A stretch of DNA of 56,832 nt, the filler included, from Dugesia japonica (Eukaryota), in the NCBI GenBank assembly GCA_001938525.1. It is 6 parts of 6 records of this genome, joined end to end, with 100 filler letters (N's around TTAATTAATTAA, not from the genome) between each part and the next. Parts side by side here need not be neighbours in the genome. Positions count along the whole stretch, not along the records: positions 1 to 10,621 come from MQRL01589655.1; 5 more parts are not named here. One strand, written 5' to 3'. The translations under genes were made by a program, and so were the position numbers. Under the pieces are notes generated by a model. The model was given only the letters and a program-made list of their open reading frames with translations, made no database searches and was not told where the DNA came from. Below, in pieces: positions 1 through 41,619 of this stretch (position 1 is its first letter; every line of letters begins with the position of its first letter).

Positions 1-302
1 ATCTTTATAAACTAGCGAAGAGGCGATGGAAAGCGGAAACCACCACGGCCGAAGCTAAGGTAAAACGCTATAAGCGGAAATGTCTGACTTTTAAAGCGGA
101 GATGGCCGCCACCCAGAATCAGGAGAGGGTGTGGAAAACCCAAGTTGAAACTTTCGTCACAATGATTAAAACATACCAAGAACGTGAAAACCAACTCGTC
201 GAGAATATAGTGAAGTTACGAGCCACCATTCCTTTAGCCCCCCTCTTGATTGATAAGGTGCTCAGACCAATCGCTCCTGAGTTACCACCTTTGCGCCAAT
301 GA
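1..302 (+). CDS. Orphan coiled-coil 'ORF-A' family, copy 1 (5' truncated by window edge)
   Basis: Open frame LYKLAKRRWKAETTTAEAKVKRYKRKCLTFKAEM...QERENQL. Clearly homologous to 10722-11006(-) and 38684-39042(+), with many third-position differences between copies. Confidence 0.6.
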   Translation, partial: LYKLAKRRWKAETTTAEAKVKRYKRKCLTFKAEMAATQNQERVWKTQVETFVTMIKTYQERENQLVENIVKLRATIPLAPLLIDKVLRPIAPELPPLRQ

Positions 303-469
303 GTTGCCAACTCTACTCCGAAAAAGAGACATAGGATACCTAAGTAAAATTCTCATGATTTCTAATAGGTGTATTAAACTTTTCTCAGACTAACATAAAA
401 ATGTAATATTCTACCTGGAAACAACATTATTAGAAATCGAAGAAACCTATTAGTTATAATTTTAAATTA

Positions 470-1656
470 TTAGGTAGTTGCAATAATTCTCGCTGTTTGT
501 TTTAATTAAGTAACTTATTAAATATTTCAGCGATAACTTTTATCAATAGGTAAGATTTGTTAAGCATTAATATTTAAATGTTAAAATAATGGTATAATAT
601 TTAGTTAAGTTGTACAGCAAACGAAAACCGATCCATTTAATATGANNNNNNNNNNNNNNNNNNNNNNNNNNNNNNNNNNNNNNNNNNNNNNNNNNNNNNN
701 NNNNNNNNNAAGTGCTGCAAAAAGTCATAGGATGCTTTCAGAAGCTTATGGCAACCATGTTTTGTCTGAAACATGCTGTCGAGAATGGTTTCGGCAATTT
801 AAAATGTGTGACTTTGATTTGCAAGATAACCAACGTCAAAGTCAAATAAAGCGCTTTTCAGATAAAGATTTGGAAAAGGTGTTGATCAAAAAACAGAAGG
901 CCAATAAATGGTTGCCTCGAAATTTAAAGAAGCAGATATTGCAAAACAATTAGACAATTGTCAGAGGCTGCTCAGCAGACAAAGGAAAAGTCCTTTTTAC
1001 ATCGCATTGTTACTTGTGATGAAAAATGGATTTCTTTTGAAAATCCGAAACTAAAAATATCATGGGTGAAGCCTGGACAACCCGGAAAATCAACACATAA
1101 ACGAGACTTGCATGGAAACAAGGTGATGTTATCCATTTTTTGGGATCAAAGGGGAATTATTTATTTTGAATTTCTGAAAAAATGTAAAACTGATGATGGT
1201 ACGCGTTATCAATGACAATTAATAAAATTGAGGCAAGCATTGCACGAAAAATGGCCAGACTATTCCAATAGACATAAGAAGGTGTTGTCATACCATGATA
1301 ATGCTCGACCCCACACTTCGATTTGAGTGAGGAATACGATAGCAGAATTCGTATGGGATGTTTTACCTCAGCCGCCATACTCACCAGATCGCATCAAATG
1401 ATTACCACCTTTTTCTCACAATGCAACATAGCTTTTGTGAACAGCACTTCAACAATCATTATGATGTTCAGAAATGGCTTGACTATTGGGTAAATTATGA
1501 GGAAGAAAATATTTTTATCAGGGAATTCATTTGTTGCCAGAAAAGAGGGAAAATGTTGTTAGCAATAATAGATGCTACTTTGAATGAGATGTATTTGGAG
1601 TTTTTATTTACATTTCTTATTATTAAAAAACAGCGAGAATTAATGCAACTACCTAA
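470..1656 (+). mobile_element. Mariner (Tc1/mariner) DNA transposon, full length, defective
   Basis: TIRs TTAGGTAGTTGCAATAATTCTCGCTGTTT and AAACAGCGAGAATTAATGCAACTACCTAA (1 mismatch), TA on both flanks, about 1.19 kb. Confidence 0.95.
642..1587 (+). pseudogene. Mariner transposase, frameshifted
   Basis: HTH CREWFRQFK, FLHRIVTCDEKWI, KVMLSIFWD, HDNARPH and PPYSPD..SNDYHLF motifs spread over several frames. Confidence 0.93.
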
Positions 1657-1700
1657 TATAATTAAATAAATCTAAATTTTAAAAAATATAAGTAGATAGA

Positions 1701-2400
1701 TAGTGGCGCACTGGAACAGCACACATTCGATTACATCACACCCGGATTAGTGATGTAATGAAACTTAATTCTAATGCATTTAGTTGGGAATTTAAAAATT
1801 TCATCATAAATTGCATCATTAGGTAACTATAACGTTACTGTTTTTAAATTTATTTTTAAAATTATTTACTCGGTTTAGGTAATGTTGATCAATTATTTAC
1901 TCACGGTGGTTTGTTTTGGATGGTTATGGTCAATTATTAGTCAGATGTAATTAGTTGGGTGATTTAGTTAAAACTTTCCTCAGGATCAGTCAATTCGGAT
2001 CAGTTTTGAACGATTTGGTAAATTATTTACTCGGTTTAGGTGATTTGGTCAATTATTTACTCAATTTGGTTAATATTGGTCAATTATTTACTCGGTATGG
2101 ACAAACGTTGTTAAATATTTGCTCACAAGGGTAATTTATTTTAGGTGAATTCAGTCAATTATTTCTTAGGTAATGGCTAACTTGATTAATTTTTTTTAGT
2201 GAATTTGGTTAATTATTTACTCGAGTTTGGTCAATTTGGTTCAGTTTTTGGTGATTTAGTCCATCATTTACTCACAGTGGTCAGAGATTGGTTGACAGTA
2301 CTCAAATTTGCTTGTTAGTGCTGAGATTTTGGATGGTTATGGTCAATTATTTATTCACAAAGATAATTTTTCGATGATTTGGGGTAATAACTTTCTTGGT
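1701..2400 (+). repeat. Left arm of foldback-like inverted structure with degenerate tandem repeats
   Basis: Terminal TAGTG..GAACAGCACACATTC..CTAATGCAT followed by many variants of TTGGTCAATTATTTACTC(GG). The reverse complement occurs at 5300-6073. Confidence 0.65.
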
Positions 2401-2529
2401 TCATCATTACAGACTATAATTATCCAGGAGAGCAGCCCATAGTAAGTACTTGTTTTTTAATTTATTTCATCATTCATAAAGTTTAATGATTTTTATCAGT
2501 ATTAATAATTATATTTGAAAATAATTTAA

Positions 2530-4925
2530 TCACTGTATGGTCCACTGGCAATGGCAGTTCTTTTACAGTTCATCAGTACTGGTTCGATTCATTTATGTGA
2601 TAACCCGACCTGTCACATTAACCAATGCATCACACAAATCATTGTCGCGGAAAAAGGTACCATTTCTTAATTGGGCTGCAATATCACTAACTTCTACATG
2701 ACCAGTACCATTATAGCTGATGTCAATATTGCAAATAAACATTGGATCCTGTTTATGTACGATAAAATGAACAGGATTGCTTGCAATATTGACCACCTTC
2801 CAAGTAGCTATCAGGCCAAAGATAGCATTAATATATGGCGCACTTTAAACGAACAAATTGAACACGGTCCTTGATGATGATGTTGTGTTCCCTGACAAGG
2901 CGGAATTTGAAATAGAGACACAGCAGAATGTCCATGAATATGTCCCGTTTGTCTGTAGCTAAGCATTGAAGCTTTTCCTCAGGGAGCCTCTCAGAGATCT
3001 CAACATTAAAAAGGTTCGAGACTTTGTTCGTATTGTCAACAATTCTGCCATTGATAATGTTGAAGGTGGAGATTCTGACCCTACTGAATACTCTTGTGTT
3101 GATTCTTCTTTTACCAGTCTTAAAATTACAGTTGATTGACTGCCGGACTTCACAAATAGTCTCGGACTAAACAGCAACTTTCTCATCGCTGATCCTGTAC
3201 TATGTAGGGAATGCAATAGTAGGGATATAGACAATGACTATATTACTGACGAAGTTGCGTTCAGGGATTTCAAATCTGCTAAAACACTTTTCTGCCCCTT
3301 TCTTGTTTCTGAGACCAGGTGGGCTCTTTTTGTCTTTGATACTGATTGTAAGATCTCTTACCTGCTTGACTCTAAGGCTGATTGAAAAAAGGACATCTAT
3401 CAAACTTCATGCATGCATGTCTGAGTTTTGTCGGAAAAATGATATCACTCTGATTATACAAACCTTTGTACCGACCACTTACCAACGAAAAGATGAAGAG
3501 AGTGGTCTGATAGTCTGTTGCTATATCAGCTTGATCTCTAATTCCAACACTATGAAGAGATTTGACATAGTCACCTTTAAATCTAAATTTTATTAAAATC
3601 AAAAGGGGCAATAAAAAATTAGATAAAATCAAAGAGGTGAATAAAACTAACCAGGATAAAATTAGCGACATGTTTTCCACCATAGGCAGAAGTGAAATTA
3701 ATTCTGTTGTGGATTCATTCTAAAGTTTTGTTCACTCTGTTCGATGTGTGAGGCCAAAAAATCTGAAATTCAAAATTGGAGAGGGTAAAACTATGAAGCG
3801 TGCAGAACTGGATATAAATCTACGAGATAGATTCTATCACTCGCAAAACCCAGTCTTTGAGCTGATCACTAACGAAGTGACAGCTGATTGCTTTCCATCT
3901 CAGGTCGATCTCAAGGCGTATTTCCAGTCTAAAGCTAATTCTGGGCTCCTCACTAATTGGGATCTATGCCCCCTTTAAAATTTGACGATGAAGGGTTCGA
4001 ATTCCTCTGTCCAGATGCCGCTGCAATAAGACGCACACTATATAGAGTGTCTGTTTCGACTCCTGTTCTAAATAACATCACGTATCAACATCTGAAATCC
4101 GCAGAGCTAAAATGCGCTATTATACACCAAATCTTTAAGAATATTCTTTAATCTGGTTTTACTCCGGACAGTTGGAAAACTTATTCAACATTGATGATTC
4201 CAAAACCAGGCAAAGCAGGGCCATACCACGAAGTCTCGTCATGGCGACCAACAGCTTTGTTAGATTGTTTGTACAAGCTTTTCATGGCTTGTCTCACATC
4301 TCAGTTGTCGAGTTTGGCCATGAGATCAAAACTGCTTGTCAACCTCAAGAAAATTTCTGGCGAGTGAGAGGACTGTTTCAAACACAATCTTATTCTGTGA
4401 TGTTTGCTAGATGAGCAAAGTCGATATACTAAATTCAAATTACATATAGGCTTCTTAAATATCACAAATACTTTCGGCAGTATTACTATAGAGCATATCC
4501 CTGGCCTGCTCAACAGAAGGTGTGTCTATAAAAACTTCATCAATCTAATAAGAGGCCTGTACTCCGACTGCTACAGCTATTATACTTGCAATGAAACCTC
4601 CACTAATCCCATTGCAAACAAAAGAGGCGTCATACAGGGTAGTTCCTTATTTATGTTATTGTTCAGCATAGGTATTAACCCAATCATAACCGAAATAACA
4701 AAAGACTCACGATGCTGGTGGTTCATGTGCAGGCCACCCAATTTCTTGCTTGGCGTATGTGGACGACCTCGCTCATGTAGCTTCGTCAAAAGCAAGCCTA
4801 CAAGACATGATTGATTTAGCAGCAAAATTCGGAGACTGGTTCTCTCTCCCTGTCAAAAGTGATCTTGGTCAAATAACAATCAAAAGAGAACCGGTCCCTA
4901 AACTCCAGGGACCTTTTTCCTTGTG
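2530..4925 (+). mobile_element. Decayed non-LTR retrotransposon (NeSL/R2-like RLE group) with Ulp1-like protease domains and RT, 3' truncated
   Basis: RT motifs SWKTYSTLMIPKPGK..SSWRPTALLDCLYKLF, KRGVIQGSSL..LLFSIGINP and LAYVDDL (about 4750-4770). Upstream Ulp1-like motifs NKHWILFMYD...QQNVHEYVPFVC and TRWALFVFD..YLLDS...YQRKDEESGLIVCCY. Confidence 0.85.
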
Positions 4926-5299
4926 AGTAAAATAATACTAAATTTGAAACCATACGAGGTATGTATGCAGAGAAAATTGAACACCAAAATTCAAAATTTG
5001 AGATTTTTCACCACAAAACCCTATTTATTTCATTCCAGATAAATTTTGGCGATTTTAGATTTATATATTTAAAATCGGCCAAGAATTCTCTATCTAGTAG
5101 ATATAAACTATTAATGTAGATGAAAAATAATTTTTTCGAAAAATTTTTATTTGTGAAAAATAATCTCCATCGAATTCTGCATCGATTGATGTAAAAATCT
5201 CGACAAAAAAAATTTTAAAAATCTGAAAATTTAAACAAAAATTACCTAATTTCACCAATTTCCTACAAAAATATAAAATAATTTTAAAAATTTAAACAA

Positions 5300-6073
5300 A
5301 TTCTACTTTTTTCATGAATTTCCGTAAAAATTCATCTCAAACTGACCAATCCTGAGAAAACTTTCAGCCAAATCGCTCAAAAATTAACCAAAATTAACCA
5401 TTATCGAGTAAATAATTGTCCAAAACTGACCCAAATTAACCATTCCCGAGGAAATAATTTACCAAATCAACCAAAAATTATCCAAACTGAGCAGTCCCGA
5501 GGAAATATGGAACCAATTCACCTGAACCAACCAAAACTCGACATCATTCGACATCACCGAGCCACTTGTTAACCAAATTCACCTGAACCATCCAAAAATC
5601 AATCTTATTCGACCTCACCGAGGAAAATTTCATTCAATTTTACCTTAATCACCAAAAATTTCTAATCCTGAGGAAAAATTGGACCAAAACACCTAAAATT
5701 TACCCAAACTGACCAATCCCGAGGAAATAACTGACCAAATTCACCTGAACTAATCAAAAACCTACCTTATTTGACCTCATCCAGTAAATTCTTAATCAAA
5801 TCGTTCAAAAATTACCTAAAACTGATCAAATTTACCCAAACAGACCAACCAGAGGAAATAATTACCTAAAATCATCCACAAAATTAACATTCTCGAAGAA
5901 TTTCCTTATCCAATCATCCAAAAATTTGAAAATTTAAATAACTCGGTAAACATTTCAAATAATTCGGTAAACTATTTAAATAATTCGGTAAACTATTCAT
6001 GCATTAGGAAAGTTACGTAATCATTTTTTACACACGGGGGGTACTGAATGTGTGTTGTTCTTGAGCCACACTA
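5300..6073 (-). repeat. Right arm of foldback-like inverted structure with degenerate tandem repeats
   Basis: Repeats GAG(G/T)AAATAA(C/T)T(G/T)ACCAAA, the reverse complement of the left-arm unit. Terminus on - reads TAGTGTGGCTCAAGAACAACACACATTC..CTAATGCAT. Confidence 0.65.
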
Positions 6074-7973
6074 TCTCTCTACTATGTTGCCGCATCCATT
6101 CCGTGGATTATCTATTTCTACAACTTCATCTTGATCAATCTCGGAGTTATCATTGATTTGCTGTATATTTGTTTGTTTTAATAATTGCATTCTGGTTGCT
6201 ATACTTACTAGAGATTTTATAATAGCGATCTTACTAAGTTTTGGGAAATTAAATTGTANNNNNNNNNNNNNNNNNNNNNNNNNNNNNNNNNNNNNNNNGA
6301 ATGCATTATGCAAATAATGCATAACTCCAGATAGTTCTGTTCGTCTTTCATAGATCCGTTCCTTTAAAGCAATTAAAAGCTCATTGCTTAGTGTTGAATT
6401 TATTTTGCTCAGTTCTTCAAATAAAAACTTAAAATTGGTGTCTGCTGAAATTAAATTTGAATCTTTCCGACACAAGGCTTCGCCTGCAAGTTTCACTGGT
6501 TGAAGTGCGGAAATGGCTACATATGGCTTCAAATTCTTCGTCACTGAAAGAATCTAATTTTAAATCTATAATAGATTTTTGTATACAACTCTTTAGCTTA
6601 TAAAATCTTTCTAACATTGAAAATAAAATATTCCAACGTGTTTTACAATCTAAAATAATATCAGTTCCTTACCGAATTCAGCTTTCACATTAAATTGCAA
6701 TATTTTATCGTTCTTTGTTGGCGAACGACGAAATATTTTTACAATTTTTCTCAATTTTTTAATAAGTAGAGTCAGCTCAAAATGATTTATTTCTAATATA
6801 TTATTTTGTTGTCATTTAATTGTTAATCCGTTATCATTTTCAATGTCTTCATCTTCAAATTCATCCTCTGATTCACCATTAGAATCCCAGTNNNNNNNNN
6901 NNNNNNNNNNNNNNNNNNNNNNNNNNNNNNNNNNNNNNNNNNNNNNNNNNNNNNNNNNNNNNNNNNNNNNNNNNNNNNNNNNNNNNNNNNNGTGAACAAA
7001 ACATAATTGTTGGTCAGCACTGATAAGAGTGCCAACTTTCTTCATGACAGCTGCACCGTCCGTTGTTATGCATACAATGCCATTTTTTAATGATATACCA
7101 AATTGTTTTAACTTAGTATTTACAACTTCTACTTATTTAGTTGCTGGCAAACTTCCAAACATTCTAATTAATCCTAAGTTCCATACTTTTCTTTCTGAAT
7201 AAATATTTATGTTTATGTATCGGTGGTTTTTTACAGAACATCACTCGTCAAATGTCAAGCTAAATCCAATTTTATTTTCCTTCTGTTCTGCAAGCGCTTT
7301 GACATATAAATTTCGAATCTGGTTACTGTAAACAACAATATTTTTTTGAATACTGTTGGCAGATTTCGGAAGCTCGCCTATACGCAACGCTTATATTACC
7401 TTTCGAAGATATTCTGATGTAATAAATAATTTAAACGGTAAACCATCATAAGCACACATTCTCGCTAATACAACCTCTAATGAACTATTCGTTGTTTTAA
7501 AATATTTCGTTATAGTTGCACGTGGGCTTTCTACATTTGATTCAGTGTCAGTACTAGTAGCAGGAACATCACGCTTAAGAGTTTTTGGATTTTGCGTGGC
7601 CGCCTTTCTTTTCTTGTAAAAGAAACTGCAAATCGAAGATTTGTCGTCGTCTTTTGTATGTTTTACAAATTGTAAATTTTCCATTTCAGAAGATTGCATA
7701 ATGTTTATGTATTTAAAATAATTTATACTTTTAGTTTTTATCTTAATTGTAAAATTGATTATAAATTTAAAATTAAAAAATTTAAAATATTAGTTGACTA
7801 GATTTGCAAAACATACTACTATTATTTTAAATTTTATTATTTATTTCAAAATATTATTTTTTTTGTTTTCTGACAACTAAGATATTAATACAGAAATACC
7901 GCGGTATTAATGCTTTAAAACCGGTACTGAATACCGAAAAATATACTTCAGGATCCCGGTATTGCACTCCCTA
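6071..7973 (-). mobile_element. hAT DNA transposon, defective, 3' end lost
   Basis: Terminus TAGGGAGTGCAATACCGGGATCC with subterminal (A)ATACCG repeats. Transposase motifs LARMCAYDGLPF, FSLTFDE, ITTDGAAVMKKVG, QQLCFVH and LDCKTRWN..MLERF. Confidence 0.9.
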
Positions 7974-8076
7974 CTAAGAGGTCTTTAAAGATTTTCAAAA
8001 TTATTTTAAAATATGCAAAAAAACGATGGCAAATGTTTTATAAAAAATAAGTAACGACATTTAAAATAAAACTTTA

Positions 8077-8117
8077 TTGTTATATATTTCGACGGATTAA
8101 CCGTCATCATCATACAA
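8077..8117 (-). ncRNA. Minimal type I hammerhead ribozyme motif (Penelope/retrozyme-like), C3 mutated
   Basis: - strand: TTGT-ATGATGA-T-GACGG-TTAAT-CCGTC-GAAA-TATA-TA-ACAA. Stem I TTGT/ACAA, stem II GACGG/CCGTC, palindromic loop 3. Confidence 0.55.
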
Positions 8118-8924
8118 AAATGAAATAAATGATTTTATTCAGTCTGTATTATTCAAGCAAAGATTTATGCGATTATACTGATTATAAGACGGCTATAATT
8201 CTTAATTTTTTAAATTAAATTCTTCATTTTTAAAATTTTTTAACTTTTCAATAAAAAATTAATTTATATAATATTTTATTATTTTTACCTATAAAATCAA
8301 AGATGTTTTTTCAAAAAATATAATTGTTTTTTTAATTTTAGATTATATTAATATTTTTTAAAACCTATGAAAATTGAAAATTCTAACAAAAAATAAAATA
8401 GAAAACCTATGAAGTAATAAAATTTTTTAAATTTACTTAAAAAATTAAAATACAATACCTATAAAAAAATTTTGAAAATAAATTAAGATTTCAAGAAAAT
8501 TTGAAAAATTACTTTATATCCAAAAGATTTTTAAAATTTTTTTAATTAATTTAGTAGAATGAGTTGCCTGTACATTAATGCTTAGATTATGAAATTTAAT
8601 CATTAACGCCTTATACATCACTCTCTCACAGTAATTCCTTAAATAAACAGTAAATCTTCCAAATTTTAAAAATTGTATCTTCATCTTTTAAAATTATAAG
8701 TGCATTCAGTAATAAGTCTAAGACTCTTTATGAATTGGTTTCTAAACTGATTTATAAATATGAATGAAATGGGTGTAATGCCACATACATTAGAGAAACT
8801 CCCACTCATCTCTGTAATAGGATTTATAAACATAGTCGGTTAGTTAGTCGCAGTATTATTGCAGAACATAATATTCAGTGTAAATCATTTATAAATATTA
8901 ATAATTTCAAAATTTTAAAGATTA

Positions 8925-9170
8925 ATGTGCGAAGCATTGATTATTAGATCATATGATCAAAAAATTAATGTTCAAACCGGTGTTCATAAATCTTTATTGA
9001 ATGTCTTTAAGAAATTTTAATTTTATTGGGTCTGTTACATAATTGATTACATAATTCATTATTTGAGTATACATATTTTATTCATAGTTTTAAACAGTTT
9101 GTCTAAAGATGACAGATATACTGTTGAAACTTGTGGTAAATAAATATTTAACAAAATGGCATGTTAAGCT
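8925..9170 (+). repeat. Dispersed repeat of about 250 bp (Penelope-like terminal repeat), copy 1
   Basis: Colinear with 26205-26452. Both carry CT(A/G)AAGATGACAGATATACTGTTGAAA and end in AAATGGCATGTTAAG. Confidence 0.7.
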
Positions 9171-10621
9171 ATTCAGGAAAAGATTGCCATTATTCTTTAC
9201 CTTTCGAAAATATTAATAAATATAAAATTGAATATTAATATTTGTGATGAACTTTCTTAGCTGCAGCTAAAATGGTTATTTTTAGCTTGATGTTACTGCA
9301 AGCTAAACTTTTGTCATTTTTGTGGTACATTTTATTATTTTTTTGTTTTGCTGTTCAGTTGACATAGGAAAGCTATTTTCATGCAAATGTGTTGGGAATA
9401 GGTTTAAAGTTTTGAGTGCAATATTTTTTTAATTATGATATTCATTTTTGATTTTTTGCCAAAATTTGTCATTGCTTATTAACATTCTCCATAATCTCAT
9501 TTTAAATTAGAAGCTTTTCAAAACCTCAAATTTTACTGAAGTATCCTTGATAATTTTTCATATGCATCACTTTGGGAAACACTGACCAATACAACCAGAG
9601 GGCATATAAAATGTACAAATAATATAAACACAATCACAGATACATCAAGCTAACGAAATATAAGCATATCTTCAACACAAATTCGAAAATTCCAAAGAGA
9701 AGTATGATAAAAGAAATACTTTTGGAGCGACAAATATATTCTTAAATGGCAGAAATTTCAATGACAAAACGAACTTTATTTCTGAATCATATGACAATTC
9801 CGATCTCGATTTTTATGCGAGAAGTATCATTTTAACTTTCATTTTATTCCTTTTTCAATAAGTTCATTTAGAATTTATATATTTTTCTCTACGTTTAACA
9901 ATTTAAAAGAAATATTAGGTTGTTCTAGTGTCCAGATATAGCATTTGGACATGACCCACAATAGGTGCATATCATCAGATACAATAATCACTCATGTACC
10001 ACCGGTGGTACACGACGATATGAGCGTGTTAACAATGATTGAAATAAAAAAATAATTTTCGTAAAGACAATTATAATCACAAATATGTTACGGATCCTTA
10101 GAACCATTTACTAAGAAAAACTTTAGACAACTCCTAGAATACCAACAAATTATAAACGTTACAATTAAAATGTCAATCTTGAAACAGACAATAATTTTCT
10201 CCACATTATTATAATTTTTGTGGATTTCACCAAAAAAAACTTGTGAACTAACAAGGAAATATATATTTTGGCTTCGCAAACAGATGGCATTTTCTTCGAC
10301 TAATTTCCTTCTTGAAACATTCTGAAAATAGCCGACAATACTAATAAAACATTAAAGTTATTTAAAAGAAATTGATTTAATTTCAAATTTCTTTGCTGGA
10401 TTATTCTAGTTCAAAAGAAACCTGAACTATATTCAAGAAGTTATTTAACAGCAGATATATTTTCTGATAGAAAATTGATACAATTCACTATATGAAATGA
10501 AATTGTTTCCCTTAAATTTATTTTAAAAAACTAATGGTTAGATAGTCGCTATCTAAATAAATCTCAGTAAAAATCACAAAAAACATCAAGCATATACAGT
10601 AAATAAATTGTTTTCGGAAAA

Positions 10622-10721
10622 NNNNNNNNNNNNNNNNNNNNNNNNNNNNNNNNNNNNNNNNNNNNTTAATTAATTAANNNNNNNNNNNNNNNNNNNNNNN
10701 NNNNNNNNNNNNNNNNNNNNN
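10622..10721. other. Artificial contig linker (44N-TTAATTAATTAA-44N)
   Basis: Exactly 100 bp; identical at five places in the window; stop codons in all six frames. Confidence 0.98.
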
Positions 10722-11006
10722 TATTATCTAACAACTGATTTTCCCGTTCTTGATAGGACTTGATAATGTTGGCAAAAGTCTCAACTTGGGACTTCCACAC
10801 CCGCTCTTGATTCTGGATGGCATCCATCTCTGCTTTAAAGGTCAAACATTTCCGTCGATAACGTTTCACCTTAGCCTCGGCTTCGGCGCTCTCGGCTTCC
10901 CAACGCCTTTTAGCCAGTTTATAAAGATCCCAAGTGAGTTCCATATCCTCACTATCTTCTCGTAATTTCTTATTTGGCGCCTGGGATCTATTTAAAGATG
11001 AATGCA
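10722..11006 (-). CDS. Orphan 'ORF-A' family, copy 2 (starts at splice acceptor; 3' end cut by linker)
   Basis: tttcag|TGCATTCA then HSSLNRSQAPNKKLREDSEDMELTWDLYKLAKRRWEAE...QERENQLLDN, open until the linker. Confidence 0.65.
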
Positions 11007-11287
11007 CTGAAATATAAATATGCTTTTAAGGTGTTACACTTTATTCAGAGTTAACTGTTATTAGAAAAGTTGGGTCGTTTAGATTACAAATACTAATAAA
11101 TGAAATTAGTAAACCCAATCTCATTACCAATATATTTATGTTTTACGATTAACAAAAATGGAAACACTAAAATCAAAATTAAATTACTATTCCCCGAAAT
11201 CAACTCACAAGAAGATTTAGAATTGGTCATAAATATAATACTTATTTATTTTTAACAAAAACCAAACAGGTTAAGAAGGAATATTAT

Positions 11288-11622
11288 TATTTTCGGTGTT
11301 GGGGGCGGTATTTTCCGCATGTTCCCTTCCGGAAGGTTTTCTAATGCCCCATATTATGTTGGTTATAAAAGCTTGGACTATTGGTGGGGGGCTGGAAGCT
11401 GGTATTGGAATTGGGTGGCGTGGGTACGCTCGGGCCCATTCCATTGACGATAACTCAATCGCTCACCAAAATCCTGAATACGGTTGACTGCTGCTTCGAC
11501 GGGTGGCAGGTTAGTTCAATCTGTTAGTACACCGGCATCCCGGTTATAAGAATTGTGATACCGACGCAGGGTTAGTCGGTGGGTTCTCCTATGGATGACG
11601 CGTATCCATATAGAATCCATAT
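11288..11622 (-). pseudogene. Orphan GC-richer reading frame starting at a splice acceptor, with internal stops
   Basis: ttttattcgtag|AT ATG GAT TCT... (MDSIWIRVIHRRTHRLTLRRYH...). Composition contrasts with the AT-rich spacers. Confidence 0.3.
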
Positions 11623-11758
11623 CTACGAATAAAAATAAAACCAGTAACATTGGAGCAGTACCATATTAAGATATAATAGATGGATATAAGTAGGAAATAC
11701 ACAATTAATTTATGGTTTATTTAATCGCACAAAAAACGTGGGACATTAAAGAAAGGAG

Positions 11759-11941
11759 TCATTCTTCGTCCAAATCTACCTTCTCGTCCATTGGGGACAT
11801 CTCGGCGAAACAGCACAAGTCNGTTTCGTCCGGATGCTCTATTCTTCCACGGGTTATCATGTGAGCTATTAATTGTTTCAATCGAGTCTTCTGACGTTGT
11901 CTCTTGATCCCCTGGAGGGTACGACTAAATTCGGTGTTCAT
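11759..11941 (-). CDS. Orphan 60-aa ORF following a splice acceptor
   Basis: tcctttag|C ATG AAC... MNTEFSRTLQGIKRQRQKTRLKQLIAHMITRGRIEHPDE..DLDEE*. Confidence 0.35.
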   Translation of the reverse strand: MNTEFSRTLQGIKRQRQKTRLKQLIAHMITRGRIEHPDEXDLCCFAEMSPMDEKVDLDEE

Positions 11942-14061
11942 GCTAAAGGAATACAATTGTCAAATAGGAGATAGGACTTTAGACTTGAATTGACAAAAGG
12001 TGGTTCGCCGTTCTTACATAATTGGATTTCGCATGAGGTGTAGCATAAAAGCGCATTAATATTACTGGGACGCAGAAATGTCGATAATCACTATATCCTT
12101 TGAAATTATTAATTCATTTACTATTGCTATACTAGAAACGCTATGCTATTCGGTTAGGCAAAGTACCACCCAGGGACATATAATGAACATAATCATCTTG
12201 GTTAGGCTATTTAAATCATTAAGCAATTGTTTGTGTCCACTCAACTATTGTGAATCAAGAAAAAACATTAGTTAGAATTTTAATAATATTCAAGTAATAC
12301 TTCTGGGAAGCTAAATTAATCATTATCATACCGGTGATGATATCAATAACTATCAGATTTTACCTTATTAATATGGTTGATGTGATTATTATTTTCTATT
12401 AAAAAGAATACCAATCGAGAGATCAATAAAAAATAATATTACCACCGATCTCACTGGTGATAAACACGCATTTGCGAGTGTTGTCAGAATTTAATTTATG
12501 AGATAATTATTAATATAATTTACCACAAAAGGAAAAATAAGTATAAATGTTTTATAAATTTTTCTTTCTGCAAGCATTTAGTCGGTGAATTATCTTACTA
12601 ATTTAGCTACTTTACTCAAATTTTAAATCTTTTAAATTCGTGGATTAGCGTTGCTTAGCATTGCTAAACAACTTTTACCATATGCTGTAACTATTAACGA
12701 TTAGCTATAGTGTGTTTATTACTAATCACTTCCATCTACTAAGCAAGTGATTTTTTCTCTACCCCCGGTTAATACTCATCACANGAAAACTGGTAAAACA
12801 TGCTGCAGTAGGTATGTTTGGAATAAAAGACGATGTCATCATAAAAATTGACCAGGCCTAATAGATCACCTGGATCATGCGGTTATGTTCATTTTAGTGG
12901 CTCATACAAAACAAAATATAACTTCAATAATTTATTTTATATTAATAATACACATATACGTATTAACATTTAAAATTTATTTTAACTTTTAAATTACACA
13001 TTTATACTTACTATAAGAAATTTTCTTTTGACAACTATTTCTGCAACGGGTACTCAACTTTGGGTATTTTCCTAAAATTCTTGAAAATGATTGTCACTTA
13101 TTGGAATATCGATCGTTTTTTCTGTACAAAACAATTGTCTAATTAATTATTAGTCTGAAATAATTCAATTACTCTGTTGGTGAGTTTTAACAACCGATGC
13201 GCGATAATCGATAACACTTAAAAATTGTATGAATCCTGTCGTAATATTGATTTTTTTCCCACAATAAATTCCTCGAATTAAATTTCTTCTTTAGATACGT
13301 TTATAGTTGATAAAATTTTGATAAAAATTCGATTGTAGTTTTACAATGGTGTTTTTTCTTAACTTTTTCTGTTAAAAATCAGGGGTCCTTTTATATGATT
13401 TCTGAGACTTGTTCCAGATTTGCTGATATATTTAGATCAGCTTTTTTCTACTTCCATTAGTTCTGGCGCTAATTTTCTAAAATTTTCTATGAATTTTTGT
13501 GCTGCCATTGGTGGTTATTTTTATTATGACACCTGACCATCGTGTCTTTGTTCTATTTTTATTTTCAGGATTCTCATTGGCCCGATCTTCAGGACCCTTC
13601 AGCAACCTTCTGAATGATGGTAAGTTCTTCTCCTTTAGCTTCTTTGATGCGTCTTGTTATTCTCTTTTCACTTTTTCTTATCCCGATTCTTTTNNNNNNN
13701 NNNNNNNNNNNNNNNNNNNNNNNNNNNNNNNNNNNNNNNNNNNNNNNNNNNNNNNNNNNNNNNNNNNNNNNNNNNNNNNNNNNNNNNNNNNNNNNNNNNN
13801 NNNNNNNNNNNNNNNNNNNNNNNNNNNNNNNNNNNNNNNNNNNNNNNNNNNNNNNNNNNNNNNNNNNNNNNNNNNNNNNNNNNNNNNNNNNNNNNNNNNN
13901 NNNNNNNNNNNNNNNNNNNNNNNNNNNNNNNNNNNNNNNNNNNNNNNNNNNNNNAAAAAAAAGTTTTGCCAGCGGGGGAGGCTTTTTAATGAAAAATCAA
14001 AAGTGGCATCAACGATTCGCTTCCCTGGGCTTGCCAGTTTTGGCAAAACTAAAGCTCCACA

Positions 14062-14320
14062 AATAATACACTCATAAGCCCTATATTACATTGTTGCTAT
14101 GTCAATAAAACATGGTAACTATGATTTGTTATCTGACTTATATAAATGAATCTTATAATACAAGGTATCTATGCAAGTAATACCCTCATAAACCATATAT
14201 TTCATGGTTGTTATGTAAATAATACAAACATAAACCCTATAATACACGGTTACTATGTAAATAATACACTCGTAATCCTTATAATGCAAATACTATACTC
14301 ATAAACCCTATACAATCAAA
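14062..14320. repeat. Degenerate minisatellite (about 42-bp unit)
   Basis: Recurrent AATAATACACTCATAAACCCTATA...GGTTACTATGT variants. Confidence 0.6.
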
Positions 14321-17189
14321 AATATTTTCTTATAAGTTTTTATATAGACTTTTTAGTTAAATATTGAAAGGTTCCATGAATTTATGATTTTTATGAAAAA
14401 AGTTTTAGGTTTTTTATAATTTTGTACAGAAAAGCTTTTATGATTATAATTATATTTCATTTTCATTGTTTACTCAATTATTATCCAGATTCTAAATCGT
14501 GGATATTGAAAACAACATATATTTTAACAAATGACCAAAAAAAAAATTTGAAAATTGTTCGATCTGAATCAATTCACATTTAACACAGAAACAAGTTTCA
14601 TAAACCCTGATATAACACAATCTGTATTACTAAAATTCATTGTCAATCTATCGTCATGTTTTTTTAAAAATGTAAAGTCAATTTAGGTTTCGTTCAAAGT
14701 TTTTAAACAGAAATGCCAAGTNTAGTACCCAAAAGCATATTGCCAGTTATAAACTGGCTTTCCAGAGAAAGCTTGCTGTGTATATTTTTCGACTAATCAA
14801 CTCTCAAATTTAGCACTTATTCAATCGCTTATTTAATATTTATCACTATTACTTATTAACATCATTTAAATTTAATCTATTCATTAGGGGAATTTAATTA
14901 TACTTTATAATAGTAAAAATACTTAATCTAGGATTTATACATGAATAGAAAAGCTATTTATTTTCTGTTTCTAAATTACATTAAGTCAAACGTCGGTTTG
15001 GTAATTTTTACAATATGGTAATATAACATTGTCAAATGAAGATCGATTACAAAACCAAATTTTAATTAAATTTAATTATAATTCATTGATTGAATAAATA
15101 GAAAACAATGTACTCTTCGATAAAAAAAAATTTCTTTTCTTTTCGATCAAGAATTGTGGTCCTAACGAGGACCGTTTTAACATTCCCAAATAATACCTTT
15201 TCATAGTGGTATTAAAAGAAAAAAAACAAACTTTGCATTTAGCATGTGTAAATCTTCTACTGCGAATCCAAATTTTGATAAGCAGTTTGATAAGGTTTTG
15301 AAAAGGGATCAAATTATTGGTATTTGTAAGCTACCACTTTCAGCATCCTCAAAATAAAAATCTTCAAGTAAAACATTGTCATGATCTGTCCTAGGCTGTA
15401 TATACAATTATTTATTTATTTTTATAAGAATTTTACTTGTAAGTTCAGAGTTTAATTTGTATTATGTTACAAAATTGAGTAATGAATATACGTTAGACTA
15501 CTAAAACAAAGTTATTAATAAAAGAAATCGGGAATCCAAAAGAAAATTAATAAATAAATAAACTATGACTAGGAGCAAATTTAGAATATTAAGAACAAAA
15601 TATGATGAATTAAACTTGATTTGATTGAAAATAAGTTAATAAAGTTAAAATTGCATATGGGATTAAATCACACCAAGATTAATGTGAGTAAAATGGATTA
15701 GGAAAGTAAAATTAAACTAAAATAAGAGCATAAGAGCCAAATGAAAGCAAAGTTAGAATCTTGGAATGAAAATAAATTAGAAATAATAAAAGTAAAGATA
15801 TGCAAATTGAAGTAGTAAAATCGAAGCAAAATAAGAATATTAAAATGCAATTGAATCAATTTAAATTAAGAATGTTAAAGTAACTTGAGCATTTTATAAT
15901 TACAATTATTGTGAGAATAATTGTTGGACTTAACCATTGATCGGATTTGAGTTTTCTTTAAAATAAGATAAAGCTTCGATCAAAATAAAATTTATTTGTA
16001 AAAAAGTTCAAATTTTCGACAATAGTCTTCTTCAAGAACATGTTGGCTTCTTGAGATATTTTAGTAAGATTATTAAGGCTAAAACAGGCGGAGCATATTA
16101 AATTAAAGTATGCATATTGTAATTGAAGTAAAACTAAATTGAGCATACTAAGTAAAATAAATTGAAAATATTGAAACTAAAGTAAACTCAGCATCCTAAA
16201 GTAAATAAATTGAATCAAGTACAAATCCAATATATCAAAACAAATGAAGAATTTTGAAGTAATCAAAGTATGAAAACGAAAATCAAGCTTATTATGATTA
16301 AGAGTATCGAAAACCCAGCAAAACAGATTCGAAAAAGTGAATATATTATTAAGTGTATTATGGTTAAGAATGAAGCAAATTCGACATGAGTAGAGTAAGA
16401 GTATTGAAATTAATGTGAACTCCGGATCTTAGAGTAATAAGTATGAGTAAGTTAAGAATATAAAAAAATGAAGTAAATTAAGGGTTCACAGAGAGGTCCT
16501 CCTACCTCACAAGCGTGGCTAAAAACAAGGATTTACAACAGACTAAGAAAATAAGATTGAAGGCCGGAAGAGTTTGCCTGCAGTTTAAATGGTACTCCCG
16601 CATATTTTATGGATACCCGGCCGGCCATAATAGTTCGTCTGCTACTTAAATCGTACTCCCAACGCGCCTAGGAGCAGAAAATTTGACAAAATTAAATCAA
16701 CACAACCCACAGAAAGACTTAGTACAATAAGGTGCCTCAACTGTCATGCTAGCCGAGATTAGTAGTTGTGAAATTGGTCTGATCAACCAGACATCTGAGA
16801 TACGATCGGCTCAGTTGTCCACAGCAAAAGCTGCTTGAGTAGTTATGACTGTCATAAAATGAGGACAGCGACAGGATCGGAAGGGAAAGCCAGTCTCGGT
16901 GGAAAGCGATAAACCATCCACGTTTTATACATGGTTACGAATCTTAGATGTAAGTAACGGTAGTACACTTACTTCCAGGACGTACTAAGTATACTTCAGA
17001 GAACACGATCAATTCAGATCTAGGCTTATACAAGTCTCATAGTAGCCACAGCTACTGGATTTAACCAACTAACTCGTCACCAGAAATATTTAATGGGCCT
17101 GTTTAAGCAAAAACAACTCATGAAGGCAACGAACAGTATCGCCTCCCTCTGATCAAATCGACAAAATTTAACTGGTTGTTCCAAACATA

Positions 17190-17500
17190 AGCAATTTGCA
17201 AATAAATTATAAGAGTAAATTACAGAAGGATATTACGTGTTAGACAGCAAAGTTATACAAAGATTGTTACAGTTCAGAAGCAAAGTGCGAATAAATATTG
17301 TACTTCAAATGTAAATCACAAAAGGATATTACGTTTTAGACAGCAAAGTTATATAAAGATTGTTACAGTTTAGAAGCAAATTGCAAATAAGTATTGTATT
17401 TCAAGAGCAAATCACAAAGGGTTATTACGTTTCAGACAGCAAAATGATACAAAAATCATTACAGTTCATGAGCAAAATTACAAAGGATTAATACATTTTA
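17190..17500. repeat. 96-bp tandem repeat, about 3 copies, upstream of a Gypsy gag
   Basis: GG(A/T)TATTACGT..AGACAGCAAA at 17228, 17324 and about 17420. Confidence 0.85.
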
Positions 17501-17769
17501 TAAGTAAAATAAGTATTTTATCTAAAGGGTGAATTACAAAAAGTTATTATTTCTCATAAGCATATTACATAAGTAAATTACAATGGAGTGATTGTATCTC
17601 ATAAGCAAATTACTAATAAGTAATAAAGTAATTATTAAATCAAATTTAAAATTCGATATTAAATNNNNNNNNNNNNNNNNNTATTGAATCAAGGTACAAA
17701 ATTGATAATGAAATCAAATTACAAAATCAGTCAGTAACTGCAAAATAAATACGAAGGACATCATAGGCT

Positions 17770-19344
17770 TAAAATGCGACTTTAAAATGAATCCCCAGTG
17801 ATAGTAAGTTAGGAATCAGTTATCAGCAGAAAACGAGTAGATATTAATCAGCAGCCCTAATAAAGAGTTCGACGAGGACGTCGAATTTAAACAAACCGAG
17901 GGTGGGTGAAGAGATGAAAATAACTTTAACAAATGTATGACTTAGATTAAAGGGTAAATGGTAGCGGGGGTTATCTAAAAGAATAATGTGTTACAGGTAC
18001 CTAACATTCGTTGGAGCAAGCACAATCGAGTCGGAAATCTTTGTAACAATTGGCACTATCTAAGTAAATTAGTGTATAATTATATCTTTTATAGAAATAT
18101 GCAAAGAAAATCATTAGAACGTTATCGCGAACAAAAAAGTAATGGAAGAAGGAGCAGTAAAAGAACAAGAAAATAAACGTATTTGGGGACTCTATGAACA
18201 ACTTGCAGGAAGGAAACAAAGGAAAAATGAAACCTGCCAGGAGTTTGCAGCCGCAATAATAGATTTTGCAAAATTAGCGGATCTAAAAAATGAACAGATG
18301 ATAAAAAAATGTTTCAGATCCGGCCTACGAGACCCATTGGTAAGAAACCATGTAGCTTCAAGCAAACCTCTTGATTTGACTACTGCTATATTAAAATCAG
18401 AAGCAATGAATAAAGTATTAGCAGAACAACGACTAATTATCGAGAAAGAAACCGTTAGTCAATGAACAATATATAAGCAAAATAGATGCCAAAATTGTCG
18501 GAGAACTCACCACAGTACCAATCAGTGTACAATCATCTATATATTTTGCAGCATTTGTGGTCGGAAAAATCACCCCATGGATAAATGCTGGCAAAGATAT
18601 TATAGTAAATGCGGAAAGAAGGGGCACCCTGAAGAGAGATGTCTACTCAAGAGAATCAGAATAGAAGAGGATCAAAGTTCAAGAGATGATAACGAAGTTA
18701 ACACAACTCATAGCTAACAAAGTGTGAACCAAAGTAAAGAATCAACTAAATTGCACATGCTAAGAACCAAAGTACCTGAGAGCCTAGGAATTAATGAGGT
18801 ATTACCAAAGACTCAGCGAGTACAAAAATGTTACAATTGTAACAAACAAAAGCACTAAGCTAAAGATTGATAAATAAAAAATAAAGTGTGTTATATCTGT
18901 GGAAAACAGGGCCATATCGCAAGACTATGTCGACACAGAATAGACNNNNNNNNNNNNNNNNNNNNNNNNNNNNNNNNNNNNNNNNNNNNNNNNNNTCGGA
19001 GAACTCACCACAGTACCAATCAGTGTACAATCATCTATATATTTTGCAGCATTTGTGGTCGGAAAAATCACCCCATGGATAAATGCTGGCAAAGATATTA
19101 TAGTAAATGCGGAAAGAAGGGGCACCCTGAAGAGAGATGTCTACTCAAGAGAATCAGAATAGAAGAGGATCAAAGTTCAAGAGATGATAACGAAATTAAC
19201 ACAACTCATAGCTAACAAAGTGTGAACCAAAGTAAAGAATCAACTAAATTGCATACAGAACAACATACAAACAACATACAGAAGCAGATTTCCAAATCCC
19301 AACAAACAAATCAACCAAACCAATTCAATTCAAATTCAAGAAGA
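17770..19344 (+). mobile_element. Ty3/Gypsy-like LTR retrotransposon gag remnant with several zinc knuckles
   Basis: RKQRKNETCQEFAAAI...IKKCFRSGLRD capsid-like segment. CCHC knuckles CYICGKQGHIARLC and CSICGRKNHPMDKC, plus a degenerate one, SKCGKKGHPEERC. Confidence 0.8.
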
Positions 19345-24215: not shown

Positions 24216-25432
24216 ATATAACAAATATTTAAATCAATTTACATTTAAAAATTGTTTTCTATTTTAAAAATTTGTAATGTACTTTTTTTACTATAAATAT
24301 TTGAAATAATTTTAAAATATTTCAAGAATAAATTTTAATATAATATAATATAATATAATATAATTGTAAAAAAATGCTTGAAATTTAGCCTATTAAATAA
24401 TAAAATAAATATTATGTCATCATTACGTAACATTTGTTTTAATGTGTTCAGAATGTCCAATGAGCAATTCAAAGAAAAATAATTTTAGAAAGAAAATTTT
24501 TAATTCTAAAAATTTTTTCCAATTAGATTTGAAATAAAAAATGAAAAATAAATTATAAAAATCTAATAGATAAACTAAAATATTATTTTATAAGAAACTT
24601 TATAAAAAAATTATTTACTTCACAAAAGCAAATAGTAACATTATTGTAAATATTTACTTCACTTTTCCAAATTTTTTTCCTTTTTTTCAGTTGAACNNNN
24701 NNNNNNNNNNNNNNNNNNNNNNNNNNNNNNNNNNNNNNNNNNNNNNNNNNNNNNNNNNNNNNNNNNNNNNNNNNNNNNNNNNNNNNNNNNAATTTTGTTT
24801 TAATTTACAATAATGAATATTTTATTGTTTGAATAAAACTGATAATAAAAAATAATATATTTTCAATCTGACTTTTAATTATATATTAATAATCACTATT
24901 CAAATCATATATTATATATGATTTAATTTATGATACCAACTTGATATAACATTATCTGGTGTAGAATACCAAGAAGTTGTTAAAAATTGGCGAGACAAGT
25001 TGCGTGATCTGGAATTGGCTTTGATTATTTCAAAAAATAAATTTTTATTTAAGTTAATGGAACAATTTCTGTAAAAAATGTTTTTCAGTTTCTAAAATAA
25101 AACTATAATATTAAAATTTTCGAGTTGTTAATTCTATTTTTATTTTTGAATTTCAGATTATATATTTGTAAATAAAAAAATAGATTGTTTCTTTAAAATC
25201 TTTGTTTAAAATTTTTTTTTTTGAATATTTGTTTAATATTACAATTTTTAAAAATTCATTATTATTTTAAAAACCATTTTTAAAATGATTTTTCTTAAAA
25301 ATTTTGATAGAGATTTTAAATGGAGTTAACCTAAAAATTTTTTGACTAAAAATAATTTTTAAAGTTAAAAATCAATGGCCATTTTTCATAAATAACTTAA
25401 CATGCCACTTAATTAAATATTTATTCATTATA

Positions 25433-25836: not shown

Positions 25837-26204
25837 TATAAATATAAAATTAAATCTTTTTAAAATTACGAAAATAAACTAAGGCTTAGATCAAAAAAAG
25901 TTTCAAAAAAAGGTTTTTTTTTATTTTTATTAAAGTTATAAAAAGTTTTTCCAAAGCATGTTTTTATTTTTTCCATAATTTTTGATTTTATTTTCTTCAG
26001 GAGTTGTTATCAAAAAGATTAAATCCATAACTTTGGAAAAAATAAAAACTATTTTTGAAAAATTTTTTGTAACTTTAATAAAAATTTTAAAAAAGTGAAA
26101 AAAGTTACTCAAAATGTAATTTTCACATTAAACAAAAAAATTTAAATATTAATATAGTAATTTCAAATTTTTTTTGTAGAAATGTTAAAGATAATTGTCA
26201 AAGA

Positions 26205-26452
26205 ATCATGCGCAAAGCATTGATGATTAGATCACATACTTAAATAATTATTGTTCAGGCTGGTCTTTCTAAATCTTTATTATTTTTTTTATTAATTTGA
26301 ATTNGATTGAGATTTTTACATAATCGATTTCATAATGCGGGACTTTAGTACATATATTTTATTCATAGTTTTAAGCAGTTTGCCTGAAGATGACAGATAT
26401 ACTGTTGAAAGTTGTTGCAATGAATAAATATTTAATTAAATGGCATGTTAAG
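26205..26452 (+). repeat. Dispersed repeat of about 250 bp, copy 2, containing a hammerhead-like core at 26380-26420
   Basis: Homologous to 8925-9170. TTGC-CTGAAGA-T-GACAG-ATATA-CTGTT-GAAA-GTTG-TT-GCAA. Confidence 0.7.
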
Positions 26453-27089
26453 TTCTTTATAAAAACAATTTTAAACAAATTTAAACTTTTAGTAGAAATA
26501 ATATGAAATAAATATTAAAAATTCGTAATTATAAATAATTAGGATTATGTATTTTTTTACAAATTGATATGTTATAAAATATTGCAAAAAATAAATAACG
26601 TAAAAATTGAATTATTTATTTAAATTACAATTTTATAAAATTGAACTGTTGTAAAATGTTTTTATTAATTATGATTTTAAATAAATACAAAACTTTGTTT
26701 TAGAATAGAACAATCTGAAAATATTAAATTTTAGCTGAAACATACTGAATGTATTCGGTCAATGCTCTGTGATTAAACGAATTTAAACTAAAATTTAAAA
26801 TTTAAATTAAACCATTTAATACGAAATGGTTATTGTAAATAAACGCCGATTTCAATATTAAATGTAAAAAAATAAACTTTATCTCATTAAATTTGTATAA
26901 CATGAACATATACGTCTCGGTCATCGAAAACGATTTCATCGAAAATATATAATTTTTTTATCAACTTAAAAAAACAAGTTTAAAATATTATTCTTAAATA
27001 ATCACAAACAGGTTCATCAAAAATATATTATATTTTTAGTAGCTGGTGTGCAAATTTTTATTAATAAAAAAAACAAACTTTTTACGTTA

Positions 27090-29099: not shown

Positions 29100-29225
29100 T
29101 AATAATAATAATAATCAGCGAATAAAGTAAGAAAAACAATTTTCATATAACAATTATTTTGTTTTTTTATTATTTAAGTGGATAACCTTTTATTAGGCAC
29201 TTTTTTCAAAACTTAATTTGATGGA

Positions 29226-29446
29226 ATTTTTACAATTTATAATTTTGTATCGTTCAAAAATATTCGAAACTTTTTACCAAATATTCGAATATCAAATAGT
29301 AAATTAACACACACGAATCTATTTGAATATCAAGTATTCGGATATTCAGTTTGGAATCTCTAATTCGCATAAAAAATGAAATTTTTTTTCNNACGCCAGG
29401 GGGGGTTTTAACCCCCTAAATCCCCCCACTTTTGGCTACGTCGCTG
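29226..29446 (-). mobile_element. hAT-type MITE, partial copy, inserted in a mariner
   Basis: Reverse complement of 36959-37135; terminus CAGCGACGTAGCCAA with G/C runs. Confidence 0.75.
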
Positions 29447-38493: not shown

Positions 38494-38683
38494 TGACATT
38501 ACTCTGAATCCACAATAAAATGTTTTTCTTGTTGTTTGTGTATTTAAAACAATAAATAAGTGACTCTGTTATCTTAATTTGATTCATTTCAATGTGTATT
38601 GTTCAGTGAAAACTTCTATTCTACATTAATATGAGGATGTATTTTCTAAGCATATTCTATTGATTATAATTATAAACTTTTAG

Positions 38684-39042
38684 TGCATTCTTCTTTGAAT
38701 CGACCTGCAATTCCCACGAAGAAATTGAGAGACACCAGTGAGGAAATGGAGCTCACTTGGGACCTATATTGACTGGCAAAACGTCGATGAGAGGCCGAGA
38801 TGGCCACCGCTAACAGTAAGGTGACTCGTTATAAGAAAAATTGTATCGCTTTCAAGATGGAAGCCGAGGCCTCCCACTTGCAGGAGCGAACTTGGAAGAA
38901 ACAGGTTGAGTCTTTTGCGGAAGTTATCCGATTCAGCCATGACCGAGAGAATAAACTAGTTAATGATATTTTACTTCTCCGAGAAAGAATACCTCTCGAA
39001 CCGTTGATGATCGAGAAGGGGACCCAAACTCATCGGAACTAA
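38684..39042 (+). pseudogene. Orphan 'ORF-A' family, copy 3 (two in-frame TGA)
   Basis: ttttag|TGCATTCT HSSLNRPAIPTKKLRDTSEEMELTWDLY*LAKRR*EAEM...QERTWKKQVESF..DRENKLV. Confidence 0.65.
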
Positions 39043-39164: not shown

Positions 39165-39547
39165 TGCCTCGCATCGCCTTCCCCAATAACATCCGCAGGT
39201 GCCACCGCATAATGCGCCGTCTGCTGGTTGAGCCCCATCTAAAGCGGAAAACCGATAAAGCTCTGCTTAGACATTTGAACCAACAGGATCGTCTAATTAA
39301 GAAGCTTGACTACATTGTGATAAAACAAAATAACCTAGCAGCGCAGACAAAGGTCTTGGAGAATGAAAATAAAATGTTATTGCAAAGGAAAATAGATTTC
39401 CTCAAGCAATACATTTTTGACCTTTCTCGTCAATTAGGAAAGCCTACCTGGGTCCAATGGGACGACAACGACGACGTCGCCGCCTTCAATTTTTCGATAA
39501 CTCATCCGGACCAGTGGTTAGACCCTGGCGTACTAGACGAGTTATAA
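39165..39547 (+). CDS. Orphan 'ORF-B', coiled-coil-like, starts at a splice acceptor
   Basis: tttctttcag|TG CCT CGC... 127-codon open frame, GC-richer than flanks, no ATG at its start, AATAAA about 12 bp after the stop. Confidence 0.55.
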
Positions 39548-41556: not shown

Positions 41557-41619
41557 AATATCAAAGAATAATCAAAACTTACTTCATTTTGGAAAACTAC
41601 TTTCATGATATTGAAATTG

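Follow-up and report, generated by a model that had tools for sequence, protein, structure and literature searches.

What is the short reading frame, here called ORF-A, that recurs within a 56,832-nucleotide stretch of DNA from Dugesia japonica (the window): a gene, part of a gene, or the remains of something mobile? The window is made of six scaffolds joined by spacers (N44-12mer-N44) at 10622, 19345, 29000, 38394, and 47906, and has a GC content of about 28% over its whole length. A sequence-only reading had reported three copies of ORF-A on independent contigs, and tblastx indeed finds them on three different scaffolds (1, 2, and 5). Copy 1, a predicted coiled-coil exon at 3..302 (+), has lost its 5' part at the window edge and ends at a TGA stop codon (GC3 0.51). 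Copy 2 is an open frame at 10722..11006 (-), starting in phase 1 directly after a TTTCAG acceptor-like site, with its 3' part lost at the scaffold end. Copy 3, at 38684..39042 (+), follows a TTTTAG acceptor-like site and carries two in-frame TGA codons (38770-72 and 38788-90); it is a pseudogene. The earlier reading missed these two stops, which leave copy 3 without an open frame. Copies 1 and 2 are both truncated, the first by the edge of the window and the second by the end of its scaffold. What opens the frame is an AG acceptor-like site, with no start codon there. The short motifs picked out in that reading, LAKRRW, PNKKLR/PTKKLR, and PKKRHR beyond the TGA of copy 1, are all present, the last within a basic tail (303..347, +) that stays in frame past the stop and has no counterpart in copy 3.

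By tblastx, copies 1 and 2 are 79% identical over 68 aa (54/68, E 2e-39), copies 1 and 3 are 54% identical over 85 aa (46/85), and copies 2 and 3 are 59% identical over 95 aa (56/95). Nucleotide identity is 77%, 58%, and 64% for the same pairs. Since protein and nucleotide identities are this low, the three copies cannot be alleles or duplicates made by the assembly.

The differences between the copies lie chiefly at third codon positions, as had been noticed, with 10/7/30 differences at codon positions 1/2/3 between copies 1 and 2, 30/20/58 between copies 1 and 3, and 31/20/53 between copies 2 and 3. The third-position excess is significant for each pair (30/47, p 2e-5; 58/108, p 1e-5; 53/104, p 2e-4). 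The dN/dS ratio (NG86) is 0.072 between copies 1 and 2 and 0.195 between copies 2 and 3, rather than near 1; dS is saturated between copies 1 and 3. Bootstrap 95% ranges of pN/pS are 0.09-0.28, 0.28-0.55, and 0.29-0.57 for the pairs 1v2, 1v3, and 2v3. The reported reading frame is the best of the six. The frame on the opposite strand is not the more strongly conserved one: this antisense shadow is 67% identical where the reported frame is 79% identical, and it has between 1 and 6 stops in each copy. In the remaining four frames the ratios are at least 0.7. The proposal of a protein-coding family under purifying selection is thus upheld by dN/dS, by the bootstrap of pN/pS, and by the weaker antisense frame. 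This selection is that of an active lineage and not of the present copies, because copy 3 is a pseudogene and the exon-like blocks upstream of copy 2 contain stops.

Gene structure and the repeated unit

ORF-A is probably one internal exon of a larger gene, carried by a repeat of at least 3 kb, and is unlikely to be a whole gene. This reading comes from the likeness of copies 2 and 3, which begins at a T-rich tract ending in AG. Ungapped identity between them drops from 17/20 just inside the exon to 4-10/20 in five blocks upstream. It could instead be proposed that ORF-A is a small intronless gene starting from the Met of MELTW, with the acceptor-like sites there by chance. That Met is present in copies 2 and 3, and none of the reads from the four runs aligned joins a splice at the ORF-A acceptor (11007), which the contigs of run X8 cross unspliced. 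Against this, acceptor-like sites are scarce (0.0028 per base in the whole window), copies 2 and 3 agree at every one of the first 7 residues behind the AG, which lie well upstream of the Met, and identity falls at the AG itself. One X8 variant has Arg for the Met of MELTW (with another Met two codons on), and another loses its likeness immediately before the AG, where a different T-rich tract takes over. An intronless ORF-A is therefore very improbable. As an internal exon, ORF-A would be spliced to exons upstream and perhaps also to a second frame, ORF-B, downstream of copy 3.

Upstream of ORF-A at the copy 2 locus is a predicted AT-rich intron (11007..11275, -), which is repeated in other copies and less conserved (depth in DNA run X1 of 1403 and 681). 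Next come one or more GC-rich exon-like blocks (11276..11622, -), with an acceptor-like site before 11622 and a donor-like GTGAGC at 11466, which have no stop-free frame at this locus. A predicted first exon follows at 11780..11941 (-), with an ATG, 54 open codons, and a donor-like GTAGAT at 11779. Further upstream, a GT...AG intron of 51 nt (13122..13172, -) is exactly missing from one X8 contig, and a second X8 contig has the same net loss; X8 is taken as an RNA run by guess only, and none of the listed X1 joints removes this segment. Beyond it is a decayed coding region on the same strand (13173..13690, -), in which the block 13395-13620 is the most repeated and the frame is that around KIGPMRILKIKIE. 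This region has no Pfam match. At 13580-13590 there are loose ends where, by eye, four variants are open in one minus-strand frame in which the window copy has a stop, which suggests a second orphan coding region here. Nine poly(A) reads at 13395-13620 (-) come from a distant relative, and this unrecognised coding region may be the better handle on what the element is. Likenesses to GIY-YIG, a BED finger, and an integrase GPY/F module, noticed by eye in frames of 13000-13690, were dropped for want of Pfam support.

ORF-B is an exon-like frame of 126 open codons at 39165..39547 (+), with GC3 of 0.54 and an AATAAA at 39558. It begins after TTTCAG in phase 1, the same phase in which the ORF-A exon begins after its AG. 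The putative link between ORF-B and ORF-A comes from position, strand, and composition only; in a direct comparison the two sequences are unrelated. An apparent echo of the ORF-B C-terminal motif near 1735 was likewise rejected, the DNA match being no better than shuffles and the site lying within a separate inverted-repeat element (1690-6085).

In composition, the blocks of the ORF-A/ORF-B family have GC3 values of 0.45-0.54 against 0.15 in an exon of the synaptogyrin-like host gene; the frames of four neighbours (gag 0.25, protease 0.32, Polinton-like 0.19, and a RING frame) range over 0.19-0.32. Seven of the 12 islands in the window with at least 45% GC are blocks of this family. The host baseline is taken from a synaptogyrin-like gene at 32340-32860 (-), which matches Pfam MARVEL (E 8e-7), has predicted introns of 49 and 42 nt, and has the GC3 of 0.15 given above.

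Four of the 24 sequencing runs listed were aligned on 10722-13690 at 80% likeness. The DNA run X1 gave 2271 contigs, of which 186 are at least 99% alike, 420 are 95-99%, 793 are 90-95%, and 872 are below 90%. They cover all 30 bins of the region, and at least 63 of them overlap a single ORF-A position. Summed depth per bin ranges from 142 to 16666 (10-148 for the eight single contigs listed), is 13011, 4343, and 12864 on the bins of ORF-A copy 2, and peaks on GC-rich exon-like blocks, with 11772 at 11415-11513 and 16666 at 13494-13592; the lows are 681 in the predicted intron and 142 in spacer. Joints at 11940-12923 and 12984-13145 connect the blocks into one unit, and at the contig joints 11634-11786 and 11632-11745 homology breaks across the predicted intron. 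Contigs fall in all bins, exons, introns, and spacer are all repeated, and the blocks are connected by joints, which gives the unit a length of 3 kb or more. Three loose ends inside ORF-A are further variants, in frame and, by eye, free of stops. The high copy number that had been predicted is supported by this alignment. There are many divergent copies, plausibly hundreds, although summed depth is not copy number, has no single-copy baseline, and comes from a run that may be the assembly's own source, so that no exact count can be given.

The repeat is near-silent in the two poly(A) samples. With about a quarter of each run read, 45 of 13,591,480 and 5 of 11,583,297 records match 10722-13690, all of them partially and none at 95% or more, and some are probably there by chance. 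Reads of X13 and X16 at 12902-12938 were taken as chance, having unlike ends on both sides and lying in an AT-rich spot, and are still within the 45 and the 5. One of the three further ORF-A variants, from three poly(A) reads, agrees with copy 3 at 8/10 residues and with copy 2 at 5/10. A search of sequencing runs found no RNA run among the carriers listed. Run X11, labelled as a second organism, contains 7% of the sampled words of 10722-12000, a lead that the repeat family may exist in another species.

The predicted proteins and their relatives

The sequence-only reading described the protein as a charged helix and asked for a coiled-coil check, and the prediction is of a single helix with a conserved heptad core. 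With an alignment of the three sequences, AF2 models ORF-A as one helix over residues 12-94 (pLDDT 90, pTM 0.50), high confidence of this kind being usual for single helices. The heptad a/d score is exceeded by 3, 0, and 25 of 1000 shuffles for copies 1, 2, and 3, and a/d positions are invariant at 14/18 against 19/48 elsewhere (p 0.012). The core has many aromatic residues. The modelled protein therefore fits the coiled-coil structural class, as a continuous heptad repeat on a long helix. A homodimer prediction scored 0.19 against a mark of 0.32. ORF-B is also predicted to be helical and leucine-zipper-like, with an L-x6-L-x6-L zipper, and its heptad score is not above shuffles (565/1000 higher).

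A bZIP protein has a basic region with the signature N-x7-R/K placed 9 residues from its leucine zipper. ORF-B has no such basic region and no Pfam bZIP match; what it shares with bZIP proteins such as MafB, to which Foldseek gave one weak row (E 1.8), is the zipper. ORF-A was tried as a bZIP protein and rejected: copies 2 and 3 fit a relaxed form of this signature at residue 6, followed by an acidic spacer and no third leucine. The NLS-like motifs of ORF-A fit the pattern K-K/R-x-K/R, and KKLR, kept in copies 2 and 3, is a candidate signal that fits the monopartite NLS consensus as given in PMC10309623.

No homologue had been recognised from the sequence, and this holds for Pfam, large protein collections, the PDB, and viral contigs. 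Among 31 ORFs and 18 read-through frames searched against Pfam, ORF-A and ORF-B gave only coiled-coil noise below threshold. In a search of 5.8 billion proteins, ORF-A had no match among 151 candidates of near length or 3760 longer ones, and ORF-B had none among 11; a set of 1.84 billion representatives gave none at E<=0.001. The best Atlas score was 0.90, to unnamed clusters and with low recognition. Sequences of the PDB returned a single generic coiled coil (E 0.043), and Foldseek found no match at E<=0.001 to the PDB for ORF-B or to BFVD for ORF-A. IMG/VR had nothing matching ORF-A, ORF-B, or exon 1, and searches of viral, metagenome, and prokaryote contigs were also blank. These blank searches do not prove novelty, because the collections are thin for spliced eukaryotic repeats, and the family may already bear a name in Repbase or Dfam; supplementary repeat libraries could also bear on its novelty. 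A word search of the open-access literature, which an unnamed repeat escapes, found no description of the family. Abundant planarian elements repressed by PIWI are treated in PMC8532177, PMC11410931, and PMC13524379, in passages that do not describe the ORF-A family.

A probable transposable element

On balance we favour, with some reserve, the view that a large, intron-bearing transposable element encodes a nuclear accessory protein and that ORF-A makes up its self-associating rod. This is suggested by the selection, the heptad core, the many-copy unit, the foreign GC3, the dead copies, and the near-silence, taken together; the signs of dead copies are the two stops in copy 3 and a mariner insertion just downstream of copy 1. 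Such an element would be at least 3 kb long, with several exons and probably two or more genes. The coiled-coil rod would let the protein self-associate into a scaffold and the basic patches would bring it to the nucleus, where it might aid replication of the element through packaging or trafficking of nucleic acid or through assembly of a transposition complex. If spread were limited to copies with a working protein, dN/dS between subfamilies would be low, while inserted copies would decay and be silenced by the host. The introns have been kept, which means that the element would move as DNA or else be a retroelement with the gene antisense or on unspliced genomic RNA. Movement as DNA, by cut-and-paste or by a rolling circle, is put forward tentatively; a retroelement is rather doubtful.

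As for the claim of mobility, it remains likely, though the search turned up no transposase, RT, or element terminus. In 18 frames around copies 2 and 3, Pfam found no transposase, RepHel, RT, or integrase, only the zinc knuckle of a neighbouring gag. Neither was there a DDE transposase, RepHel, RT/IN, or PLE reverse transcriptase in 11000-13690, 13956-17660, or 38494-41500, where the repeated unit is incomplete. No terminal repeats, hairpin ends, or target-site duplications were found around the copies; all three are interrupted, whether by the edge of the window, a scaffold end, or an insertion, so that the true ends of the element are outside the view. The putative 3' side of copy 3 has no significant inverted-repeat match to the far side of copy 2. 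A Helitron ends in a 3' hairpin plus CTRR; on the 3' side of copy 3 the sequence is no more prone to fold than its shuffled versions are (z -0.43, 1.58). A Helitron-like hairpin at 1730-1759 was rejected, being inside the separate inverted-repeat element at 1690-6085. For hammerhead ribozymes, Rfam on the whole window at E<=1 gave two weak unrelated rows, and divergent motifs could escape such a search.

Next to copy 3, on the other strand, is a decayed gag-protease; copy 2 has a second gag some 7 kb away, again on the other strand. Such a placement would be expected of a cassette lying antisense within an LTR element. Nested insertion is at least as likely, because the two gags match each other only at their zinc knuckles and their composition is unlike that of ORF-A.

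Several known systems bear comparison. Terminons, giant Penelope-like elements, are large mobile units with putatively structural coiled-coil ORFs (PMC6431247), as may be the case here, but the ORF-A unit has no RT, hammerhead ribozyme, or telomeric repeats in the parts searched, and no sequence link is in evidence. CERV, of the Ty3/gypsy element Cer1 in C. elegans, is described as a multi-exon, lineage-restricted accessory protein that has both a leucine zipper and a candidate NLS of the form K-K/R-x-K/R, features to which those of ORF-A can be likened, and is required for export of Cer1 RNA (PMC10309623). It is the best functional model for a possible role of ORF-A, although CERV shares exons and strand with gag, whereas ORF-A is antisense to the nearest gags. 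Burro, the giant gypsy-like elements of planarians, reach copy numbers in the thousands and carry accessory ORFs within an AT-rich genome (PMC6431247), a setting like that proposed here, but their extra domains are mainly in one huge polyprotein (MATH, BIR, BCL2, RING, env) and none match ORF-A or its flanks. Helitrons, which are mobile as DNA, retain introns and can bring along additional pieces of genes (PMC6431247), yet the ORF-A unit lacks RepHel and a convincing terminal hairpin in what was scanned, and strong selection with non-host codon usage would not be expected of captured host fragments. At best ORF-A would work in the manner of CERV or of the coiled-coil ORFs of Terminons, and membership in the Terminon, Cer1, Burro, or Helitron families is not established.

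A lineage-specific host multigene family of coiled-coil proteins, subject to birth and death and spread by segmental duplication with many pseudogenes, would also explain purifying selection on ORF-A. Such a family would fit the short, AT-rich GT-AG intron, which at 51 nt is close to the 42 and 49 nt of the host gene, as well as the few poly(A) reads from relatives and the failure to find a mobility enzyme in the scanned frames. It fits less well with a repeated intergenic spacer, with at least 63 contigs at one exon position and three copies on just six small scaffolds, with GC3 about three times that of the single host exon measured, and with near-silence in two poly(A) runs, and is considered unlikely. 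The foreign-looking codon composition and the several orphan genes on the same strand with no cellular homologue could also be those of an endogenous DNA virus or virus-transposon hybrid, Teratorn-like or Polinton-like in its way of life, whose spliced orphan genes would have multiplied in the germ line, and Polinton-like remnants with an ATP-binding frame are indeed also present on scaffold 5. That frame, however, has a GC3 of 0.19, unlike ORF-A, the searches of IMG/VR (ORF-A, ORF-B, exon 1) and BFVD (ORF-A) were blank, and no capsid, packaging ATPase, polymerase, or helicase gene is seen within the repeated 3 kb, all of which makes a viral origin quite improbable.

There is some room, if not much, for a reading in which ORF-A marks an undescribed class, either of mobile elements or of endogenous DNA viruses. 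Its members would be large and rich in introns, with several orphan genes, non-host codon usage, many subfamilies under strong protein-level selection, and movement by an enzyme that Pfam does not recognise. A full element without a known mobility enzyme would be a new kind of element, while one with such an enzyme would be ordinary and a useful annotation. Orphan accessory proteins are the means by which large transposons export, package, or protect their genomes, and few are characterised, CERV being one. With its many divergent copies, clear selection, and lack of a homologue in the collections searched, the ORF-A family is also a handle on an unannotated part of an animal genome rich in repeats, both for its classification and for tests of how it is silenced.

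Other repeats and genes in the window

Decayed mobile elements crowd the window. The mariner downstream of copy 1 (466-1666) is decayed, with TIRs at 461-506 and 1666-1622 that are 89% alike and a Transposase_1 match (E 6e-18). The separate element at 1690-6085 is bounded by terminal inverted repeats of 38 nt (79% alike). Its minisatellite arrays, at 1850-2350 and 5300-5900, are subterminal and inverted to each other, and it has a 10-bp hairpin at 1730-1759. Inside are the remains of a non-LTR element, weakly similar to RT (E 0.13), and a frame that is presumably an Ulp1-like protease. Fragments at 6071-7790 (-), with no Pfam match above threshold, are taken by us to be like hAT transposase. 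An LTR-like block of higher GC content covers 16480-19344 (+). It includes a tandem repeat of 96 bp, a decayed gag that has some five CCHC knuckles, and, at 17959, the PBS-like sequence TGGTAGC; within the block, 18498-18755 is duplicated across an N gap, probably as an assembly artefact.

The Polinton/Maverick-like remnants at 41350-47900 (-), with the ATP-binding frame at 47460-47771, are broken by gag fragments and a Tc1/mariner-like element, and the protease, capsid, and small-ORF labels within them are our presumption. Two intronless RING-finger proteins of about 240-260 aa and similar layout face each other on one scaffold (48288-48998, +; 53144-53923, -), and both are possibly element- or virus-borne ligases. 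Short dispersed repeats, 72-94% alike, are found across scaffolds at 8917-9214, 25351-25429, and 26200-26465, with other such pairs, also 72-94% alike, at 15892-16038 and 54077-54268 (palindromic over 54077-54199) and at 29225-29440 and 36965-37135. These short repeats are probably non-autonomous transposons.
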